From a virus: DNA of 39,677 nt. Where the stretch lies: UHGV virus genome UHGV-1472620. The stretch is one strand, 5' to 3'. A program made the position numbers and the translations under genes. Shown here in pieces: positions 2,155 to 34,139 of this stretch (position 1 is its first letter; every line of letters begins with the position of its first letter). The notes beneath the pieces are model-generated. The model was not told the DNA's origin. It searched no databases and was given only the letters and a program-made list of their open reading frames with translations.

Positions 2155-4911
2155 TTAGCTACTTTCAAGCATTGCAAGACGTGATTCTATTTTTTCGATT
2201 CTTCTACGCAAATAAGCTGACTCAAGCCATAAACACTGGTCAGTACGGATACCCCACCTATTTCCAGCCTTGCAAACCAGAGTTCGCTCTTCTGTTTCGT
2301 ATTCTTCTTCCATCTCAATTTCGACGCCATCCACAACTTTAGTGATCATCCTTACCGCCATCACTGGCGCGTATTTATCATCCCATTCATCGTAACAGAG
2401 AAGGCCAAATCTGGTTCCATCAATCCCATGCGCGAGGAAAGTGTCTCTCACTTGTTGTGCTATAACACCAAAATGCCAGCGGGCACCATCTCCCTTTTCC
2501 CTGACGGCATCAAGCCAGCGAAAAGCTACAATCCTGATATCTCCCCATGCATCCAGAATTGCATCACCTTCATAACCACGAGACATATACAAGCTGAGCT
2601 CACTTGTACTAATCGGTTCACTTTTTTCTCTACCATCTGATGTGTTTATCGAACCGTTCGCAGAATAAACCTGTGCCCATCTAAATGATGGTGCACCAAG
2701 AGATTTGCTGTTATCAATAATTGGTGAAAAATTACCTTTAATGGCAATATTTCCAGAGTCGCCGAATACATTAATAACTGCAGAGTCATCACCATGGTTT
2801 TTTACGCTTAAGTTTCTTGATGAAATATTTATATCTTTGTTATATCCACTAACATTAATCCATCTTTTACCATCAGTGTGATACCCGTAAATATTTCCGT
2901 CTGATTGTTCGTCAGGTGACTCTCTAAGAACAATAGCATCTGCTCCAGACGACCATTGTATTTTTGTATCTGTAGGCCTCCAGTTCTTTATAATGAACGA
3001 ACCATCAGTAAACTCCGTTTTTATTTGTCTATTGTCTACAAATGCGTCTCTTGGTTTAAACTCACTTGTGTTAACGCTGCTCTGAAGATCAGAAGCAAAA
3101 AATCTAAGATTTCCTGTATAACCCTGAGTCTCGGTCAGGTTATACGCAATCATAATTCCATTTTCAAACTCAGATGATGTTATTTTAACATCACGGCAAT
3201 CACCAAAAATGCAATTTCCTTTATCAAAGGTTGTTTGAGCTTTGAATTTATCAAACCTTAAATTACGAACAGGGAAACCATCAACCTCTAATGCAAAGGA
3301 TGCAGGAAGGCCAAAGTATTCTGATGGCTTACCTGATGTATGATCAAGAGTAGTGGCTACTGTATTCTCAAAAACAGTCCCGCTAAAATTATTACCAATT
3401 GACGGAAACCTGATTACACTTATTGTACCTTGTATTTCAGGAGAAATACCAGATAGTGTGATGTTAGTTCCATCAAATGATGCATCTGAATACGTATATA
3501 CTGATTCACTGCCAGCAATTTTAAACTGTTTAACTGAAGTTATTCTCATCGACTTTTTATGTTTAAATGTCACTGAGCTTTCAGTATTACTTACAAGATC
3601 AATCTGAGGGCTATTCCTTATCGCGATCCCTGACTGGACATAAACGTTATTAAAGTGCGTTTTTTCAGGATTTCCCTTCATTGAAAGGCTCCCGTCATTT
3701 TCTGTCAGTAGTAGTCCTTTTACCCTCCAATAGCCGACAATCTGTACGTTATCAATAACTGAATCACAGCTATCGTATACATGCAACCCTATATCCCAGT
3801 CATCACCCAATGAATAAGAATCAGGGTTATTGTATCCTTCAATACCATTTTTACTTACCATTATTCTCAGGTTGCGTAACTGTGATGCCCTGTTGATACT
3901 AACAGCTACGCTCATGGCTTTTGGTGTAGCAGGAGTAACACCTACAGAATCTTCATTTGTAAACTCAGTGAACTTACAAGATATCCCTTCAACAATTTTA
4001 ACTGGTCTTTCATTAGAGATGTTAAAAAAATATTTGTTTTTTTCTCCATCACCAGTAAATACAAGATGGGTTCCTTTACTCCAACTTTTTAATAATCTTT
4101 CAGGCGCTGGTCTATATGTATCCCAATAATCAATGCCATCACCAATTAATGACACTCCAGGAGGCACATCTATGTTCTTAGAAATCATCCATTTACCTGC
4201 AGGTATTCTAACGACACTTGCACCAGAATTTATCGCATTAATTAACCATTCAGACGCATCAACTTCAAAATTTAATGCAGCATATCTTTGCTCAAACGGA
4301 ACAAAATCAAGAGCGTTAACGTTATCCCGCATCTTATCCTGGAACGTTCGGTATACTGCTCCAGAACCATACTGAATAAACCAACCAAAACCACCAACAA
4401 CTCCGGCGATTGCAGCATCAACATAATTGCGCATTGATCGATTATTTACAGCATCCTGCTCAAATGATGGATCTGCAAGGTTAGAAATTTTGTTTTGCTT
4501 TGCATCGTAATATTTTGCAAGCAAAGATGGTTTCATCAATGCACGTCTGAACCACCCAAAACATTGCTGGATCAGCATCGTCAGGTAGTCAAAGGCATCT
4601 TCATGCACTTCGGGGAAAAATTTTCCCTGATTGCGAAGGTCTGTCTCCTGCACTACATCAAGCACACGATCTATCGTAATTCGCCATCCAGTAGCAAGCG
4701 GAGACGGAAGAACCACAGAACCGCCACTATAAGTGCCCGCCCCAGTTACCGTATAACCGGTATCCAGAACCAATTCTGTTACGTTTCCGTTCAGATCAGA
4801 CACCTGAACAACCAGGTCTGATTTTCTGAAAATTCGAAAAGTATACGGAAACGATGTCGTAACGCCGTTACCGGTGTATTCGTTGTGGTCAACTTCGGTT
4901 GAGACCGTCAT
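2155..4911 (-). CDS. Tailspike / tail fibre with C-terminal intramolecular chaperone (peptidase S74-like) domain
   Basis: 918 aa; C-terminal SDGREKSEPI ... HFGVIAQQV pattern typical of self-cleaving chaperone domains; AT-rich central region. Confidence 0.8.
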   Translation of the reverse strand: MTVSTEVDHNEYTGNGVTTSFPYTFRIFRKSDLVVQVSDLNGNVTELVLDTGYTVTGAGTYSGGSVVLPSPLATGWRITIDRVLDVVQETDLRNQGKFFPEVHEDAFDYLTMLIQQCFGWFRRALMKPSLLAKYYDAKQNKISNLADPSFEQDAVNNRSMRNYVDAAIAGVVGGFGWFIQYGSGAVYRTFQDKMRDNVNALDFVPFEQRYAALNFEVDASEWLINAINSGASVVRIPAGKWMISKNIDVPPGVSLIGDGIDYWDTYRPAPERLLKSWSKGTHLVFTGDGEKNKYFFNISNERPVKIVEGISCKFTEFTNEDSVGVTPATPKAMSVAVSINRASQLRNLRIMVSKNGIEGYNNPDSYSLGDDWDIGLHVYDSCDSVIDNVQIVGYWRVKGLLLTENDGSLSMKGNPEKTHFNNVYVQSGIAIRNSPQIDLVSNTESSVTFKHKKSMRITSVKQFKIAGSESVYTYSDASFDGTNITLSGISPEIQGTISVIRFPSIGNNFSGTVFENTVATTLDHTSGKPSEYFGLPASFALEVDGFPVRNLRFDKFKAQTTFDKGNCIFGDCRDVKITSSEFENGIMIAYNLTETQGYTGNLRFFASDLQSSVNTSEFKPRDAFVDNRQIKTEFTDGSFIIKNWRPTDTKIQWSSGADAIVLRESPDEQSDGNIYGYHTDGKRWINVSGYNKDINISSRNLSVKNHGDDSAVINVFGDSGNIAIKGNFSPIIDNSKSLGAPSFRWAQVYSANGSINTSDGREKSEPISTSELSLYMSRGYEGDAILDAWGDIRIVAFRWLDAVREKGDGARWHFGVIAQQVRDTFLAHGIDGTRFGLLCYDEWDDKYAPVMAVRMITKVVDGVEIEMEEEYETEERTLVCKAGNRWGIRTDQCLWLESAYLRRRIEKIESRLAMLESS

Positions 4912-5015
4912 GTTAAATCTCCAGATAGTCGCAGCACCCGTTGCGCCGCATATCTGGTTATTCTATTACCTGGAAAACCACATATGGATAGAAAGGCTGT
5001 AAATACGAATAGATA

Positions 5016-5030
5016 TTACCTTTCAGGTAA
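5016..5030. promoter_or_regulatory. Operator-like palindrome TTACC-N5-GGTAA
   Basis: TTACCTTTCAGGTAA, about 75 bp upstream of ATG 5107. Confidence 0.55.
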
Positions 5031-5106
5031 TTTGCAAAACGTGCTGGATAGCAAACAAATTATTTGCTACTGTATAAATATACAGTTATTGCATGGAGAA
5101 GATAAG

Positions 5107-5364
5107 ATGCAGCGGTATCACTATCCACTGGAAGACGGATTTACCGAAAGGATTCACACGCCGGGAGGCGTCAGGTCACTGGTGGAGGGATCGCACTTGA
5201 TGAAATTACTCCGGGATCTCGATAAGGATGGATTTAATGTCGATGGCCCACTTGCCGAACTGACTGCACTGATTAACTACGTCACCAGCTCACAGATGTC
5301 TATGCAGGATCTGCAAACACATCTCGACTATTGTGCCGAACAATTACGAAAACAAACCACATAA
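5107..5364 (+). CDS. Stand-alone paralog of the antirepressor C-terminal domain
   Basis: RIHTPGGVRSLVEGSHLMKLLRDLDKDGFNVDGPLAELTALINY...DLQTHLDY aligns with C-terminus of Bro-N protein 6819-7511; start chosen downstream of the operator. Confidence 0.5.
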   Translation: MQRYHYPLEDGFTERIHTPGGVRSLVEGSHLMKLLRDLDKDGFNVDGPLAELTALINYVTSSQMSMQDLQTHLDYCAEQLRKQTT

Positions 5365-5370
5365 AGAAAA

Positions 5371-5386
5371 GGCCGCGAAAGCGGCC
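5371..5386. terminator. Hairpin GGCCGCGAAAGCGGCC between convergent genes
   Basis: Perfect 6-bp GC stem with GAAA loop between stops at 5364 and 5388; identical hairpin at 8716-8731. Confidence 0.55.
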
Positions 5387-5387
5387 A

Positions 5388-5894
5388 TTAACAGTCGTAA
5401 AATTCTGGGTCCCACAAACTTGCATCGCGCGGCATGGATTCTAACTTTTTCAGCCGCAAAATTCTGTCACACTCGACAACTAATTTTTGCTTCTGCTCGT
5501 CAATTTCTACTGTCTTATGCGCTGGTTCATCCCAATAATCCAGAAGGAAGGCATGGCGTTCAGATGTGACCAGATAAATCACATACACGTCACTGGTTGG
5601 GATCTTTTTATGCTTGTTAGTGGTCTTGTCTTTCTTCCCAGACGCCCAGTTTTTCCAGCATTGTTCCGTACCGCTCTCACCAAACTTGTCAGTATAGTTT
5701 CCGATGTTTAAGTGAACGTGGCGTATGTGATATTCCAGCATCTCTTTCGGTGGATCTCGAAACAGAGTGTCCTTTCCGAAATCCTTATGATGACCGTAGC
5801 GCCAGTGATCTATGAACGCGTTTTTGATAGGTATTAGCTCAGGGTCCTTCCCAAAAATTCCAGGGTGAACCAACCCCTGGAATTTATTCGGCAT
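5388..5894 (-). CDS. Toxin-like protein A, paralog of 7954-8466 (possible YafO-like family)
   Basis: Shares HWRxGHH, GKDTLF, VHxNIG, CTEQCW and YWDxPAH motifs with protein B; ATG overlaps upstream partner stop by 11 nt. Confidence 0.6.
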   Translation of the reverse strand: MPNKFQGLVHPGIFGKDPELIPIKNAFIDHWRYGHHKDFGKDTLFRDPPKEMLEYHIRHVHLNIGNYTDKFGESGTEQCWKNWASGKKDKTTNKHKKIPTSDVYVIYLVTSERHAFLLDYWDEPAHKTVEIDEQKQKLVVECDRILRLKKLESMPRDASLWDPEFYDC

Positions 5895-6399
5895 CGTCGT
5901 AGAGCTCCTGAGCCATGTCTTCAGCAGTGCGTGCAAACATCCTTCGAGAAATTGCATGCGATTTTTCAACAGACATCTTTGGTACTTCTCGCATTACAAC
6001 CTCATGTGACGCTGTAGGCTTAAAAGATGACTTATAATACCGCTTTATCATCTCAACTAATTGCTGCTTATCCTTGGAGCGTCCAGTTTCGATTAGCCTT
6101 GACTCGTAAGGTCGCATTATATTCGTTTGACATGAGGCACGATGAAGCTTATCTGCCAAGATTCCTTCAAAAGATGTGCCCCGGATTTTTAACAATGCCT
6201 CATGCTGGTCGTATTCAGTGATGAACATAACCGGGTATTTTTGCTCAACTTCTTCATCATGAATCCTGATGGCATTGGCAGTTGCTATGGCAGCAGCATA
6301 AGCGGCTGCTTCAATCACCATCTTTTTCTCTTTTTCTTTTTCAGACTTTTTCAAGGTCAAGCGTCTATGCCTCATCGCTGCAACTCTCTTCGTGTTCAT
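5884..6399 (-). CDS. Upstream partner of protein A (antitoxin-like), basic N-terminus and acidic C-terminus
   Basis: Overlaps A start; ends ELYDDAE; track ORF starts at TTG 6411, ATG at 6399 preferred. Confidence 0.5.
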   Translation of the reverse strand: MNTKRVAAMRHRRLTLKKSEKEKEKKMVIEAAAYAAAIATANAIRIHDEEVEQKYPVMFITEYDQHEALLKIRGTSFEGILADKLHRASCQTNIMRPYESRLIETGRSKDKQQLVEMIKRYYKSSFKPTASHEVVMREVPKMSVEKSHAISRRMFARTAEDMAQELYDDAE

Positions 6400-6536
6400 G
6401 GGCACCCCCAACTACCTCTAGGGTAAACATTCTATCGAAAGTATACGCATACTGGCAAAAAAATAGGCAGGCATTTTCTGAAATGGGATCAATCAAACCA
6501 CATAGGGTTGAAATAACGTGAGTTATGCATTTATTA

Positions 6537-6551
6537 TTACCTTTACGGTAA
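6537..6551. promoter_or_regulatory. Operator-like palindrome TTACC-N5-GGTAA
   Basis: TTACCTTTACGGTAA in divergent intergenic region between A' and Bro-N gene. Confidence 0.55.
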
Positions 6552-6818
6552 ATTTACATCGCACTCCTCTTGTGCCATAGTAATCGGGCACTGGCAAAAT
6601 CCAGTGCCGGGATTGGTCTCCCGGATTACTACAGAGGCACATATGCCGCATAAGCGGTTTTTTTATGTGTAAAGCGCACCTATTCTATGGTGGGCTGTGT
6701 GGGGGCACCGAAAGGTGCGCCGGGTTCCTTTGTAGCCGGTAAGACCAACTCTGCACAGTTCACCACCATCTGATTGGTCTCAGCGGTGGTGATTAACCTA
6801 ACTACAAAGGTGATCGCC

Positions 6819-7511
6819 ATGAATACCAAACCTTCCATCTTTTCCTTTGAGTCATCCTGCCAGATCCGTATGTTCATGATTGACGGAGAACCTTGGTTTG
6901 TCACCAAAGATGTGTGCAATGCTTTGAATATTGATGTTACACAAGCGAGAAAACTTGATAAAAAAGGCTGGAACAAAAAGGGGCTGTATTCAATACAGAC
7001 CCCTGGTGGAATACAAGAACTATCCATCGTTTCAGAATCAGGTCTCTACATCCTTATTCTGCGTTGCAAAGAGGCAATGACTGAGGGAACGAGAGCATTC
7101 AGATTTCTTGAATGGGTTACAGGTGAGGTTCTTCCTCAGATCCGCCGCACCGGAAGTTACATTAAAAACTCGCTCCCGCAGGAAGAACGCATAAAGATGG
7201 TTGCCGACCAGGTAGCCAACGCCACGGCGTCAGCAGTGATGCAGGCAATGAAGATAGAGAACAAAACCTACAGTGCCCCGCTGAAGCCCGGCTACCGCAG
7301 TCTGATTCATTCTCCGTCTGGTGTTCTCGGCCTGACGGAGAACTCACTGCTGATGAATCTGCTGAACCAGTTGCAGGACGACGGGCATGATGTATCGGGC
7401 GCGGCGGCGGAACTGACCACCATGTTCTGCTACATTGTCGGTGTGAGCAAATGCCTGCGTGATATCCAGACGCACGCGGAGTACATCAACGACAAGGCAG
7501 GGTTCTTCTGA
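6819..7511 (+). CDS. Antirepressor with N-terminal Bro-N domain
   Basis: N-terminal FESSCQIRMFMIDGEPWFVTKDVCNALNI ... SESGLYILILRCKE resembles Bro-N/Ant; AAGGTGA Shine-Dalgarno before ATG 6819. Confidence 0.75.
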   Translation: MNTKPSIFSFESSCQIRMFMIDGEPWFVTKDVCNALNIDVTQARKLDKKGWNKKGLYSIQTPGGIQELSIVSESGLYILILRCKEAMTEGTRAFRFLEWVTGEVLPQIRRTGSYIKNSLPQEERIKMVADQVANATASAVMQAMKIENKTYSAPLKPGYRSLIHSPSGVLGLTENSLLMNLLNQLQDDGHDVSGAAAELTTMFCYIVGVSKCLRDIQTHAEYINDKAGFF

Positions 7512-7583
7512 CGGGCGGTGGCACAGGGATGTGCCTTTAAATAATTCTGTACAGATTGCAGACCGGGGGTGAATAGCGTACTA

Positions 7584-7598
7584 TTACCTTAAAGGTAA
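7584..7598. promoter_or_regulatory. Operator-like palindrome TTACC-N5-GGTAA
   Basis: TTACCTTAAAGGTAA, 43 bp upstream of B' start. Confidence 0.55.
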
Positions 7599-7640
7599 AC
7601 CTGTTTTTATTTTATACCTGTAACTTACCGGAGATTAAAG

Positions 7641-7967
7641 ATGACAAAACTTGGATTCGTGATGAGAGGTCCGGTAAGAAGCGGAACTCATGCAAAGCGT
7701 AGCAAGAGTCGTATTTTTACTGGTAAGGTTGTAGCACGTAAATCAGCTATTGGCTCGTTCAATAGTGAAAATGCGGCATTGCGCCATATTTTTATCAGCA
7801 CAAAGCCAAGAGCATCCGCTGATGTGCATACAATGTCTATTCCTATCACAAAGAATATAAAGCGGATAAAAAAGCTCTCATCTGCAGAATCAAAAGAGAT
7901 ATCTTTCCGCCAGCTTAACTCATTAGAAACGCATATGAAGGAAGAGGAATTCGATGTTTTTGAGTGA
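7641..7967 (+). CDS. Upstream partner of protein B (antitoxin-like), basic N-terminus and acidic C-terminus
   Basis: 108 aa, ends KEEEFDVFE; stop overlaps B start by 14 nt; GGAG Shine-Dalgarno before ATG. Confidence 0.5.
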   Translation: MTKLGFVMRGPVRSGTHAKRSKSRIFTGKVVARKSAIGSFNSENAALRHIFISTKPRASADVHTMSIPITKNIKRIKKLSSAESKEISFRQLNSLETHMKEEEFDVFE

Positions 7968-8466
7968 GTATAGCGGGAAGGTTATACCTACTGGTGAGTT
8001 TAAAACTGATGACTTTCTGATTTCGCTAAAAGATGCTTTTAAACAACACTGGCGTCATGGTCATCATCCTGATCTGGGAAAAGATACTCTTTTTGAAAGA
8101 CCAGAGGAAGTATTAGGCTTCCATCTCAGAAAGGTTCATGTCAATATTGGTGAATATGCATCATATTCATACTCATGTACTGAACAGTGTTGGGATGAGT
8201 GGTCATATGGATTGATTGATGAACAAGGAAATTACAGGCCAAAACCAACCAGTAACGCATATCTCATATATGCAGTCAATGAAATAAGAGATGCAGCCTT
8301 ACTAGCTTATTGGGACCCGCCCGCACACACCAAAGCTAACGCAAAAGTTTGGATGGATTCCGTATTGAATTTCACAAAATTATTTCATGAACGAACGAAT
8401 ACAGCTCCACTTAGTAGAAATGTTTATCCGTGGGATTATTCGTACAAATCCAAAAAGCCTGCATAG
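7954..8466 (+). CDS. Toxin-like protein B, paralog of 5388-5894 (possible YafO-like family)
   Basis: Motifs shared with A (see above); strong GAAGGAAGAGGA Shine-Dalgarno; AT-rich coding region. Confidence 0.6.
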   Translation: MFLSEYSGKVIPTGEFKTDDFLISLKDAFKQHWRHGHHPDLGKDTLFERPEEVLGFHLRKVHVNIGEYASYSYSCTEQCWDEWSYGLIDEQGNYRPKPTSNAYLIYAVNEIRDAALLAYWDPPAHTKANAKVWMDSVLNFTKLFHERTNTAPLSRNVYPWDYSYKSKKPA

Positions 8467-33554: not shown

Positions 33555-34139
33555 ATGAAAAGTATCCAGGACGTCCGCAGGCAAAATCTCAACGACTTGA
33601 TCGACCGTGAATTCAATGGTGTTCAGACGCGGATGGCAGAAAAACTTGGAACTCAGGCAAATCTGGTAAACCGCTGGGCTCTTGGCAAGAAGGTTATCGG
33701 CGACCAGGTTGCGCGAAAAATTGAAGCTGCCGCCAATAAACCCCGTAACTGGCTTGATATCGATCGCTCGCTTTCTCAGGAAGGTTTTCAGCCTGTCGGC
33801 CCAAGCGACATTGGTCAGCTGGCGGCTCACAACCTGGAACGCTGGATGAGCGAAAGCCGCGACCTTTCAACGCAGGGAAAACTTCACCGCGCATCCGGCG
33901 TCGCCCAGGTGACAATCAGTCGCCTGTTAAACAATGAGGTCAGCGTTTCCATTTCCACCCTGGAGAATGTTGCATCCGCATTCGGGCGTCACGGATATGA
34001 ACTACTGATTCACCCGCACGACCCTGCGACTATCAACTATGACCGCTCGCGCTACGCATTGTTACCCGAAACCGAGAAAGCAAAGATCGAAAGTTACATT
34101 GAATTTGTCATCAACCAGAACGAAAAAAGCAAACAATAA
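33555..34139 (+). CDS. Prophage repressor with tandem HTH domains and no peptidase domain
   Basis: Two Cro/C1-type HTH-like segments; no Ser-Lys autopeptidase region seen. Confidence 0.7.
   Translation: MKSIQDVRRQNLNDLIDREFNGVQTRMAEKLGTQANLVNRWALGKKVIGDQVARKIEAAANKPRNWLDIDRSLSQEGFQPVGPSDIGQLAAHNLERWMSESRDLSTQGKLHRASGVAQVTISRLLNNEVSVSISTLENVASAFGRHGYELLIHPHDPATINYDRSRYALLPETEKAKIESYIEFVINQNEKSKQ

Follow-up and report, generated by a model that had tools for sequence, protein, structure and literature searches.

Two genes of one prophage encode proteins that share a domain, which raises the question of whether the shorter gene is a remnant of the longer, a modulator of it, or a gene with a task of its own. 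The window analysed here is a DNA stretch of 39,677 nucleotides (UHGV virus genome UHGV-1472620), the whole of which is a Uetakevirus (epsilon15/phiV10-like) prophage of E. coli. An earlier note, made from the sequence alone, had described a short open reading frame as a stand-alone copy of the C-terminal domain of a "full" antirepressor carrying a Bro-N domain.

The short gene, ant, is no leftover copy: it encodes the antirepressor that epsilon15-like prophages are known to deploy upon DNA damage. The Bro-N protein, which contains a diverged version of the Ant domain, is probably a second antirepressor under the control of RNA. It is proposed, with a probability of roughly 80%, that the prophage has one repressor, Rep, which is unable to cleave itself, and two antirepressors built on a common Rep-binding domain. 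Phage switches of this kind are well understood, and the present case does not overturn the current understanding of them.

A domain common to a short and a fused protein

The coding sequences 5107-5364 and 6819-7511 (window coordinates) are also called by PGAP on an identical E. coli chromosome. The 85-aa Ant (5107-5361) and the 230-aa Bro-N protein (6819-7508) align without gaps over 74 residues (residues 2-75 of Ant, 149-222 of its longer partner), 31 of which are identical (42%, with 57% positives and a BLASTP E-value of 2e-15). The likeness between the short frame and the C-terminal ~70 aa of the Bro-N protein, which the earlier note had pointed out, is thus significant when the pairwise alignment is computed. 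Both proteins match PHROG 450 (E=2e-47 for Ant, E=5e-37 for the Bro-N protein) and chain E of the structure 5D50 of the SPC32H Rep-Ant complex: residues 2-85 of Ant match residues 3-86 of this chain (E=3e-47), and the C-terminus of the Bro-N protein matches it over 77 residues (E=1.6e-13). In addition, 24 alignment columns are invariant among the stand-alone homologs and the fused copy. These three independent results agree and confirm the homology of the shared domain.

The family is tiny: an exhaustive HMM search among 1.84 billion representatives returned 59 clusters. The fused architectures surfaced in that search, while a word-index protein search with Ant gave close stand-alone homologs only. 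No similarity of Ant to anything outside the SPC32H family was detected by the 5D50 search and the exhaustive HMM search. In the phylogeny, stand-alone and fused copies form separate clades, which are old, so that a recent local duplication is not the origin of the pair. The C-terminal domain of the Bro-N protein, called Ant-C below, is an old paralog of the stand-alone Ant domain. The dN/dS ratios across both copies (0.02-0.3) are well below 1 and denote purifying selection.

All 32 phage records that contain the Ant domain also encode a Rep homolog. Of 5426 complete E. coli genomes, 529 carry the small ant (with at least 95% identity in nearly all) and 470 carry the fused C domain; the two are usually adjacent. 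The pairing of ant with a fused gene is seen again in two distant lineages, L008 and L009.

The stand-alone gene ant and its control

The identification of ant (5107-5364, plus strand) as the ortholog of the SPC32H antirepressor is based on the match to 5D50, on synteny and on dN/dS. The annotated SPC32H protein has the same length as that of the window and is 88% identical to it (tblastn), and its gene has the same tailspike-side position, the same LexA box and the same operator. In the window, ant lies beside the tailspike gene, divergent from it, between this gene and the virion genes. It has a Shine-Dalgarno sequence, GGAG, 8 nt 5' of its ATG. In comparisons with the SPC32H and Tyrion orthologs, dS reaches 1.0-1.5 or more, while dN/dS is 0.05-0.08. 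The longer frame of cluster P0001 (4984-5364, 126 aa) was not adopted: it starts upstream of the promoter and of the LexA box, and the SPC32H protein gives no support for it.

The SPC32H Rep-Ant structures are available as PDB 5D50 and 5D4Z. The rep gene of the window (33555-34139, plus strand) encodes a repressor of the same type, which matches chain A of 5D50 over residues 1-190 (E=3.5e-42) and is a full-length homolog of SPC32H Rep (~43% identity). The Pfam search of Rep returned HTH families only (two HTH domains) and found no Peptidase_S24 autocleavage domain; SPC32H Rep has no autocleavage domain either. Judging from its sequence, Rep would be incapable of RecA-dependent self-cleavage. 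It is the presumed common target of both antirepressors.

The palindromic motif TTACC-N5-GGTAA, with at most one mismatch, occurs 16 times in the window versus 0.64 expected, and four operator-like sites surround rep (33437, 33485, 34197 and 34259). In SPC32H, the motif is likewise enriched and clustered around rep. Its enrichment and its positions suggest that it is the Rep operator. One predicted operator, TTACCTTTCAGGTAA (5016-5030), is located in the ant/tailspike intergenic region, directly 5' of a -35-like TTGCAA (5032-5037), and occupies the same place in SPC32H, phiV10 and TL-2011b. The earlier note had attributed an operator-associated promoter to the short gene, and this palindrome supports that attribution.

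A predicted LexA (SOS) box, TACTGTATAAATATACAGTT (5068-5087, plus strand), lies 20 nt 5' of the ant start codon and agrees with the consensus at 18 of 20 positions. A scan of the window for the 20-nt LexA consensus, allowing up to three mismatches, returned this site alone (0 expected). The core of the box, CTGT-N8-ACAG, is kept in SPC32H, TL-2011b, L005 and Tyrion, and has one mismatch in phiV10, L008 and L009. With one mismatch allowed, the bare core shows no enrichment in the window (18 sites versus 14 expected), so the significance of the box comes from the match to the 20-nt consensus and from its positional conservation and not from the core pattern. The box does not appear in the description given by the earlier note.

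Downstream of ant, a GC-rich hairpin, GGCCGCTTTCGCGGCC (5371-5386), separates it from a convergent YafO-like gene and is a probable terminator. The scan detected it as terminator-like on the minus strand, and it may also serve the plus-strand ant transcript.

According to reviews that cite the SPC32H work, the antirepressor of this phage is produced once LexA is cleaved, and citing papers describe Ant as a tetramer that binds two Rep dimers and frees them from DNA. The LexA control and the Rep-Ant complex are reportedly the subject of two studies, by Kim and Ryu (2013, J Virol) and by Kim et al. (2016, PNAS). If the prophage of the window follows this paradigm, host LexA would silence its ant promoter, probably together with Rep bound to the adjacent operator. 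DNA damage would remove LexA and allow Ant to be made; tetrameric Ant would then bind Rep and strip it from its operators, and the prophage would be induced.

Tum of coliphage 186 and GfoA/GfhA of the Gifsy prophages obey the same logic: a non-cleavable repressor is combined with a LexA-repressed small antirepressor gene, so that the SOS response induces the prophage, as proposed here for ant. These proteins are analogs of Ant and not homologs. The LexA-controlled small antirepressors are said to have been described by Shearwin in 1998 (Tum) and by Lemire in 2011 (GfoA/GfhA).

The fused gene and its RNA leader

The fused antirepressor (6819-7511, plus strand, 230 aa) is recognised by its Pfam Bro-N match, by its match to chain E of 5D50 and by its identity to ORF4 of phage ZX5. 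The Bro-N head spans aa 16-106 (nt 6864-7136; PF02498, E=1.8e-13, 51.4 bits for a gathering score of 25.6). It is followed by a linker (aa ~117-155, low confidence) and by the Ant-C domain (aa 147-229, nt 7257-7505), a module for which no Pfam model was found. The ATG at 6819 is preferred as the start codon because the sequence AAGGTG is present 8 nt upstream and because PGAP makes the same choice. An in-frame TTG at 6774 was rejected; it has no Shine-Dalgarno sequence and sits in b2, one of the RNA target sites described below.

Ant-C is found behind exchangeable heads: Bro-N, AntA, Rha, ORF6N and P22_AR_N. When heads are swapped at the same locus, the tail is retained at 95-99% identity (dN/dS 0.02-0.18). 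Over all comparisons, the dN/dS of the fused-gene C domain is 0.02-0.3, and this domain diverges faster than stand-alone Ant. The fused gene carries a frameshift within Ant-C in phiV10 and in two O157 typing phages, which indicates that it is dispensable; the ant gene of phiV10 is intact.

The AF2 model of the fused protein, obtained from a 20-sequence alignment, has two domains and a mean pLDDT of 63.8 (58-70 for Ant-C). A Foldseek search of the PDB with this model returned nothing at E<=0.001 and did not recover 5D50; it says nothing about the tail, for which the intertwined tetrameric fold of Ant is the probable reason. The head has weak matches (E about 0.02) to the N-domain of baculovirus Orf22 (Bro-N), to Ski/Dachshund and to Mbp1 (APSES). 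Ant-C would bind and inactivate the resident Rep. Its identity to Ant, only 42%, and the low confidence of its model speak against this; the strict co-occurrence of the domain with Rep and the overexpression phenotype of ZX5 ORF4 described below lend it indirect support.

The region upstream of the fused gene differs in kind from that of ant. A predicted Rep operator with an exact match to the motif, TTACCTTTACGGTAA (6537-6551), abuts the -35 of a promoter-like site (TTTACA-17-CATAGT, TG-extended, 6553-6581, plus strand) found by consensus scan. The operator is therefore immediately 5' of the -35, as it is at the ant promoter. The candidate promoter would place the transcription start close to the 5' end of an IsrK-like RNA (6588-6664, plus strand), which matches the Rfam family RF01394 from position 6588 with 74.7 bits (gathering score 50, E=2e-15). 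This RNA contains two mimics of the C4 targets, b1 (TTGGTCT, 6613-6619) and a1 (CTACAGAGG, 6629-6637, with one G-U pair with the C4 loop), and ends in an intrinsic (Rho-independent) terminator detected by scan at 6645-6664. The Rfam c4-a1b1 model scores 39.9 bits on the leader, under its gathering score of 46.7.

A C4-type antisense RNA follows (6683-6770, plus strand; RF01695, 78.6 bits, gathering score 45, E=7e-15). In its minimum free energy fold, it exposes the loop a' (CCUUUGUAG, 6727-6735) and the single-stranded segment b' (AGACCAA, 6742-6748). Sites exactly complementary to both are located just downstream (6774-6810, plus strand): b2 is TTGGTCT (6774-6780) and a2 is CTACAAAGG (6802-6810), which overlaps the Shine-Dalgarno sequence AAGGTG of the fused gene (6806-6811). 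The 48 nt from the end of C4 to the ATG at 6819 contain no separate, icd-like ORF.

IsrK and C4 matches above the gathering scores also precede the counterparts of the fused gene at seven other loci, which carry four different N-terminal heads. Across the eight loci, a', a1 and a2 covary, as do b', b1 and b2, and a2 covers the Shine-Dalgarno sequence at every locus. Compensatory loop/target changes are seen in phiV10 and TL-2011b (CCTTTTAG/CTAAAAGG and ACGCCAA/TTGGCGT) and in L005 (CCACTTAG/CTAAGTGG). Whole-molecule RNAduplex energies between C4 and its flanks are no better than those of shuffled sequences, so the evidence for C4 pairing is carried solely by the loop-specific complementarities and by their covariation.

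These elements suggest the following course of events. From a Rep-controlled promoter, transcription would produce the terminated IsrK-like small RNA, then the C4 antisense RNA and then the fused gene. The a' and b' segments of C4 would base-pair with a2 and b2, straddling the Shine-Dalgarno sequence, and prevent translation; it is proposed that the second antirepressor is silent in the lysogen for this reason. The decoy sites a1 and b1 of the IsrK-like RNA could titrate C4. Synthesis of the fused protein would await conditions in which C4 is lacking or loses the competition, such as entry into a new cell or superinfection, a use that would be anti-immunity as in P1, P7 and P22; an altered IsrK:C4 ratio could likewise allow its synthesis.

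Alternative roles and related switches

The closest functional information comes from phage ZX5 (vB_EcoP_ZX5), a member of the same genus. Its ORF4, at the same locus, is 80% identical overall to the fused protein of the window: the first 106 residues, which include the Bro-N head, are ~57% identical, while residues 107-230 have a single difference. The Rep proteins of the two are 99.5% identical. Overexpression of ORF4 lowers the number of lysogens from 10^9 to 10^6 per mL (~1000-fold) and the repressor mRNA by 75%, in what is a crude test (PMC9782041). The authors of this study took the Bro-N protein as the "anti-repressor" and mention neither the small ant, nor the C4/IsrK leader, nor the SPC32H structures (PMC9782041).

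The result in ZX5 bears on a very unlikely reading, in which Ant-C would be a mere oligomerisation module and the Bro-N head, with a KilA-N/APSES-like DNA-binding fold, would do the work and leave Rep untouched. The fused protein would then be a regulator of transcription or replication, or an antirepressor directed against the repressors of other phages. The variety of the heads joined to the tail, the weak resemblance of the model to Bro-N, Ski/Dachshund and APSES DNA-binding folds and the faster divergence of the fused domain are compatible with this reading. However, the conservation of the tail under head swaps fits a constant, phage-specific function of the tail, the Ant domain occurs only alongside a Rep homolog in the 32 phage records, and ORF4 antagonised lysogeny in a phage whose Rep is the same (PMC9782041).

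Equally in need of consideration is what the short protein does to the long one. The earlier note had suggested a functional competitor that tunes the full antirepressor. This is superfluous, since SPC32H, epsilon15 and their Salmonella relatives carry the short gene without the fused one, and the short protein thus works alone. The direction implied by the note, from a full protein to its copy, is the reverse of the one found here: the short protein represents the primary antirepressor in minimal form, and the "full" one is one of several Ant-domain fusions. A related and quite unlikely possibility is that Ant and Ant-C form mixed oligomers, in which one partner would modulate or poison what the other does. 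It draws on the 24 invariant columns of the homologous domain, on the tetrameric state of Ant described in citing papers, and on the association of the two genes in E. coli and in L008 and L009. It is opposed by the autonomy of ant in SPC32H and in the epsilon15-type Salmonella phages, and by phiV10, where the fused gene is broken and ant is not; the long separation of the clades, with ~40% identity, argues against preserved hetero-oligomer interfaces, and under LexA control on one side and C4 RNA control on the other, the two proteins would seldom be made together. The other option of the earlier note, a decayed duplicate, would make the short frame a copy of the Bro-N 3' end that is degenerating or no longer translated, and its likelihood is next to nil. 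Sequence similarity alone and the "unknown function" label of PHROG 450 speak for it, but the short frame is uninterrupted and has a good Shine-Dalgarno sequence; it occurs in 529 complete E. coli genomes; its dN/dS is low at a high dS; it belongs to a clade apart from all fused copies; and its ortholog has been crystallised with its repressor and studied functionally.

SPC32H has neither the fused antirepressor, nor the isrK/C4 leader, nor YafO-like modules. Compared with this phage, the window has about 3.3 kb of extra genes inserted after ant.

The leader of the fused gene resembles the immI region of P1 and P7 (c4 - icd - ant1/ant2). Both have a repressor-controlled promoter, a leader with a1 and b1, a C4 RNA (processed in P1/P7), and a2 and b2 sites that cover a ribosome-binding site 3' of C4. 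The covariation of loops and targets in the window family is reminiscent of P1/P7 heteroimmunity. In contrast to P1, where ant expression depends on the translation of icd, the window has no icd-like ORF and its C4 aims directly at the Shine-Dalgarno sequence of the antirepressor itself, which is Bro-N::Ant-C, and the master repressor is an SPC32H-type Rep instead of C1. In P1, too, the antirepressor exists in a long and a short version (Ant1/Ant2), which have their C-terminus in common. These two forms are in-frame products of one gene, whereas those of the window come from separate genes under separate controls.

A second parallel is the isrK-orf45-anrP-isrJ region of Gifsy-1. Hershko-Shalev et al. 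(2016, PMC4825925) showed that IsrK supplied in trans activates the translation of the downstream antirepressor and that AnrP turns on antQ transcription. The Gifsy-1 IsrK RNA ends at a terminator of its own, past which read-through reaches an antirepressor-like gene, and the same layout is predicted in the window, where the isrK match is full-length. In Gifsy-1, the processed RNA STnc1160 occupies the position of C4. No equivalent of orf45 is evident in the window, the downstream effector and target differ, and the Uetakevirus version is a prediction from sequence. The window family adds natural covariation data for the control by C4/IsrK beyond P1 and Gifsy-1.

A more speculative extension, which we consider unlikely, is a two-input switch on Rep in which the heads add a second specificity, the fused protein is bifunctional and the C4/IsrK variants define immunity types independent of Rep. 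If it were true, the heads (Bro-N, AntA, Rha, ORF6N, P22_AR_N) would bind, for instance, the repressors of heterologous prophages or DNA, and the fused protein would be a cross-talking anti-immunity factor; the loop variants of C4/IsrK would set RNA-level immunity types, comparable to P1 versus P7. To our knowledge, no two-input switch, head specificity or RNA immunity type has been described for the Uetakevirus-like group.

The modular phage "antirepressor" proteins built from KilA-N, Bro-N, Rha, AntA and ORF6N domains were reportedly described by Iyer, Koonin and Aravind in 2002. Like them, the fused protein of the window combines a DNA-binding-like N-terminal head with a variable C-terminal module. 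Unlike most of their tails, Ant-C has a stand-alone homolog of solved structure whose repressor partner is known. This ties a repressor-binding domain of solved structure to the large and poorly understood Bro-N/Rha/AntA/ORF6N class, and the locus offers a concrete case in which the C-terminal tail would be the repressor-specific part and the head the exchangeable one.

PGAP currently gives ant, the SOS switch of a prophage carried by ~10% of the complete E. coli genomes, the label "hypothetical protein", and the small ant of ZX5 has the same annotation. PHROG 450, the family of ant, is labelled "unknown function". These labels amount to a likely mis-annotation of the switch gene, which is corrected here.

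Two proteins with a common domain

The small gene (5107-5364, +; 85 aa) and the Bro-N protein gene (6819-7511, +; 230 aa) encode related sequences: residues 2-75 of the small protein align without gaps with residues 149-222 of the Bro-N protein (BLASTP, 42% identity over 74 aa, E=2e-15), and both match PHROG 450 and the same PDB chain (5D50 chain E). The C-terminal similarity read from the sequence in the earlier note is thus real, and its coordinates there are right. A prophage of E. coli Combat2C1 matches the region at 100% identity, and the Uetakevirus phages phiV10, TL-2011b, vB_EcoP_ZX5 and EC.W1-9 match it at 92-98%.

The small protein matches over its full length (E=3e-47) the "Anti-repressor protein" of 5D50, the 86-aa Ant of Salmonella phage SPC32H, whose gene, annotated ant, has a product 88% identical to it. 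The SPC32H ant adjoins the tailspike gene, as in the window, where the order is tailspike gene (-), small gene (+), accessory genes and virion genes (-). By sequence and position, the small gene is the ortholog of the crystallised antirepressor. The rep gene (33555-34139, +) matches chain A (Rep) of 5D50 (E=3.5e-42); the window Rep consists of HTH domains only, and a domain search found no S24 peptidase domain in it.

Antirepressors of the SPC32H type are described, in papers that cite the SPC32H work, as being produced after LexA cleavage and as inactivating the repressor by protein-protein contact; Ant is described there as a tetramer which binds two Rep dimers. A LexA box, TACTGTATAAATATACAGTT (5068-5087), lies 20 nt upstream of the small gene. 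It agrees with 18 of the 20 consensus positions, is the sole such match within the window, and aligns with the box preceding SPC32H ant. In their abstracts, Kim & Ryu 2013 and Kim et al. 2016 reportedly give the same account of LexA-dependent production and of the tetramer with two Rep dimers.

The dN/dS of the small gene is 0.05-0.08 against SPC32H and Tyrion (dS at least 1), so it is under strong purifying selection, and the gene is found in 529 of 5426 complete E. coli genomes. The earlier note had considered a decayed duplicate of the Bro-N protein gene. This idea is refuted, because the small gene is a known antirepressor, preceded by a LexA box, under purifying selection and widespread. 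In some public annotations (cluster P0001, 126 aa, 833 member sequences) it begins at an upstream ATG (4984-5364). With this start the LexA box and the promoter would fall inside the ORF, and the 126-aa call is very probably wrong.

Among 1.84 billion representative proteins searched exhaustively with a profile, only 59 clusters have the Ant domain, either stand-alone (about 85-95 aa) or C-terminal behind a head of the Bro-N, AntA, Rha or ORF6N type; a P22_AR_N head is known in addition from TL-2011b. The SPC32H-type stand-alone clade is separate from the fused-tail clades in a neighbour-joining tree, and therefore the small ant and the fused tail are old paralogs rather than products of a local duplication. 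The same locus of another E. coli prophage (L005) carries an AntA head on a tail 95% identical to that of the window: heads are swapped and the tail is retained. The dN/dS of the fused tail is 0.02-0.3. A Rep homolog is encoded in 32 of the 32 phage records with an Ant domain, among 50,697.

TL-2011b has two fused antirepressors, at 5406-6101 (+) and 7277-8221 (-), whose tails are 93% identical and whose heads differ (Bro-N and P22_AR_N); counting the small ant, the phage has three Ant-domain genes. Such a double fusion probably explains the 2-3 tail copies of some E. coli genomes. Between the window and SPC32H, the stand-alone Ant is 88% identical and Rep only about 43%; the divergence of the fused tail, unlike that of the stand-alone Ant, is roughly in step with that of Rep.

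The isrK/C4 leader of the fused gene

Upstream of the ATG of the fused gene (6819), an Rfam search returns, in order, the a1/b1 target sites (6575-6627, under the gathering score), the IsrK sRNA (6588-6664, 74.7 bits) and the C4 antisense RNA (6683-6770, 78.6 bits). Complementarity is exact between the C4 loop CCUUUGUAG and CTACAAAGG (6802-6810), a site that overlaps the Shine-Dalgarno AAGGTG. The unpaired C4 segment AGACCAA has its complement, TTGGTCT, on either side, upstream at 6613-6619 and downstream at 6774-6780. The P1/P7 immI operon has this architecture, as does the Gifsy-1 isrK-anrP locus, in which IsrK activates in trans the translation of the antirepressor-like gene (PMC4825925). 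P1 has an icd-like ORF but the window cassette has none, and therefore C4 would act on the antirepressor's own ribosome-binding site.

IsrK and C4 also precede the fused genes of phiV10, TL-2011b, Tyrion, a Klebsiella phage and three other prophage loci; the pair is absent from the ant locus of SPC32H, which has no fused gene. In the divergent lineages L008 and L009, a LexA-boxed small ant and an isrK/C4 fused gene recur beside a tailspike-like gene. The window, Tyrion, the Klebsiella phage and L009 have a' CCTTTGTAG, a1/a2 CTACAAAGG, b' AGACCAA and b1/b2 TTGGTCT (the window a1 is CTACAGAGG, with one G-U in its pairing with the a' loop). The corresponding elements are CCTTTTAG, CTAAAAGG, ACGCCAA and TTGGCGT in phiV10 and TL-2011b, and CCACTTAG, CTAAGTGG, AGACCAA and TTGGTCT in L005. 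L008 combines CCTTTGTAG with imperfect CTATAAAGG / CTACGAAGG, ACGCCAA and TTGGCGT. C4 loops and target sites thus covary from locus to locus, and these compensatory changes are good evidence for a functional pairing.

Function of the fused protein and rival readings

ORF4 of ZX5 is 80% identical to the window fused protein overall, with a single difference from position 107 onwards, and the two Reps are 99.5% identical. Overexpression of ORF4 lowers lysogens from 10^9 to 10^6 per mL and the repressor mRNA by 75% (PMC9782041); that paper mentions neither the small ant, LexA, C4 nor SPC32H. The fused gene is frameshifted within its tail in phiV10 and in two O157 typing phages (9 and 10), and so is dispensable. 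In phiV10, a laboratory phage, the second antirepressor is thus broken and ant is intact; the frameshift (4219-4454) leaves an annotated 194-aa "anti-immunity protein" and a 29-aa ORF.

Most likely, two antirepressors built on one domain inactivate Rep, Ant in response to SOS through LexA and Bro-N::Ant-C under C4/IsrK control. SOS would free Ant expression, and the departure of Rep from the adjacent operator may boost it further, a positive feedback. In the lysogen, C4 would keep Bro-N::Ant-C untranslated; the protein would be made when C4 is missing or titrated by the IsrK-like RNA, for example during infection or superinfection, and would serve anti-immunity as in P1, P7 and P22. We infer that the fused tail binds Rep. 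In the AF2 model (pLDDT 63.8), the Bro-N head is followed by a linker of low confidence and a helical tail; a fold search with the model recognised the head alone, weakly, with no match for the tail. That the tail is merely an oligomerisation module for a DNA-binding head is improbable, and mixed Ant/Ant-C oligomers that would tune activity, a form of the competitor idea of the earlier note, likewise have a low probability.

Every component of this two-antirepressor arrangement is already known, the small gene being the ortholog of a crystallised protein. In the literature searched, we found no statement that an Ant paralog is part of the Bro-N-type antirepressors in this phage group, that one Ant copy is controlled by LexA and the other by C4/IsrK, or that heads are swapped on a constant Ant tail. 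The result usefully draws these parts together and corrects the annotation, and is not a new type of system.

Operator-like sites and flanking genes

The palindrome TTACC-N5-GGTAA has 10 exact copies in the window, and 16 copies when up to one mismatch is allowed, versus 0.64 expected. Copies flank rep (33437, 33485, 34197 and 34259) and lie immediately 5' of -35-like hexamers of ant (5016-5030) and of the Bro-N leader (6537-6551). SPC32H is also enriched (18 versus 0.5 expected), with copies clustered around rep and one in the ant-tailspike spacer. Because of this enrichment and placement in both phages, the motif is a candidate Rep operator; its core is the same in both despite the divergence of Rep. 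The operator-associated promoter which the earlier note assigned to the small gene is therefore supported by the site at 5016-5030, but the LexA box had been overlooked.

Putative toxin-antitoxin-like pairs lie on either side of the Bro-N gene: a YafO-family-toxin-like gene (5388-5894, -) overlapping a 171-aa partner (5884-6399, -; PHROG 9503), and another (7954-8466, +) overlapping a 108-aa partner (7641-7967, +; PHROG 5933). The YafO-like paralogs are 46% identical over 150 aa, their upstream partners are unrelated, and both pairs are missing from SPC32H and phiV10. Operator-like sites precede each pair, exact at 7584-7598 and with one mismatch at 6412-6426 for the 5388-6399 (-) pair. Further palindromes, intergenic in the early and late regions and remote from rep and ant (25026, 28153/28171, 31092/31154 and 39513), suggest that Rep controls many promoters throughout the prophage.
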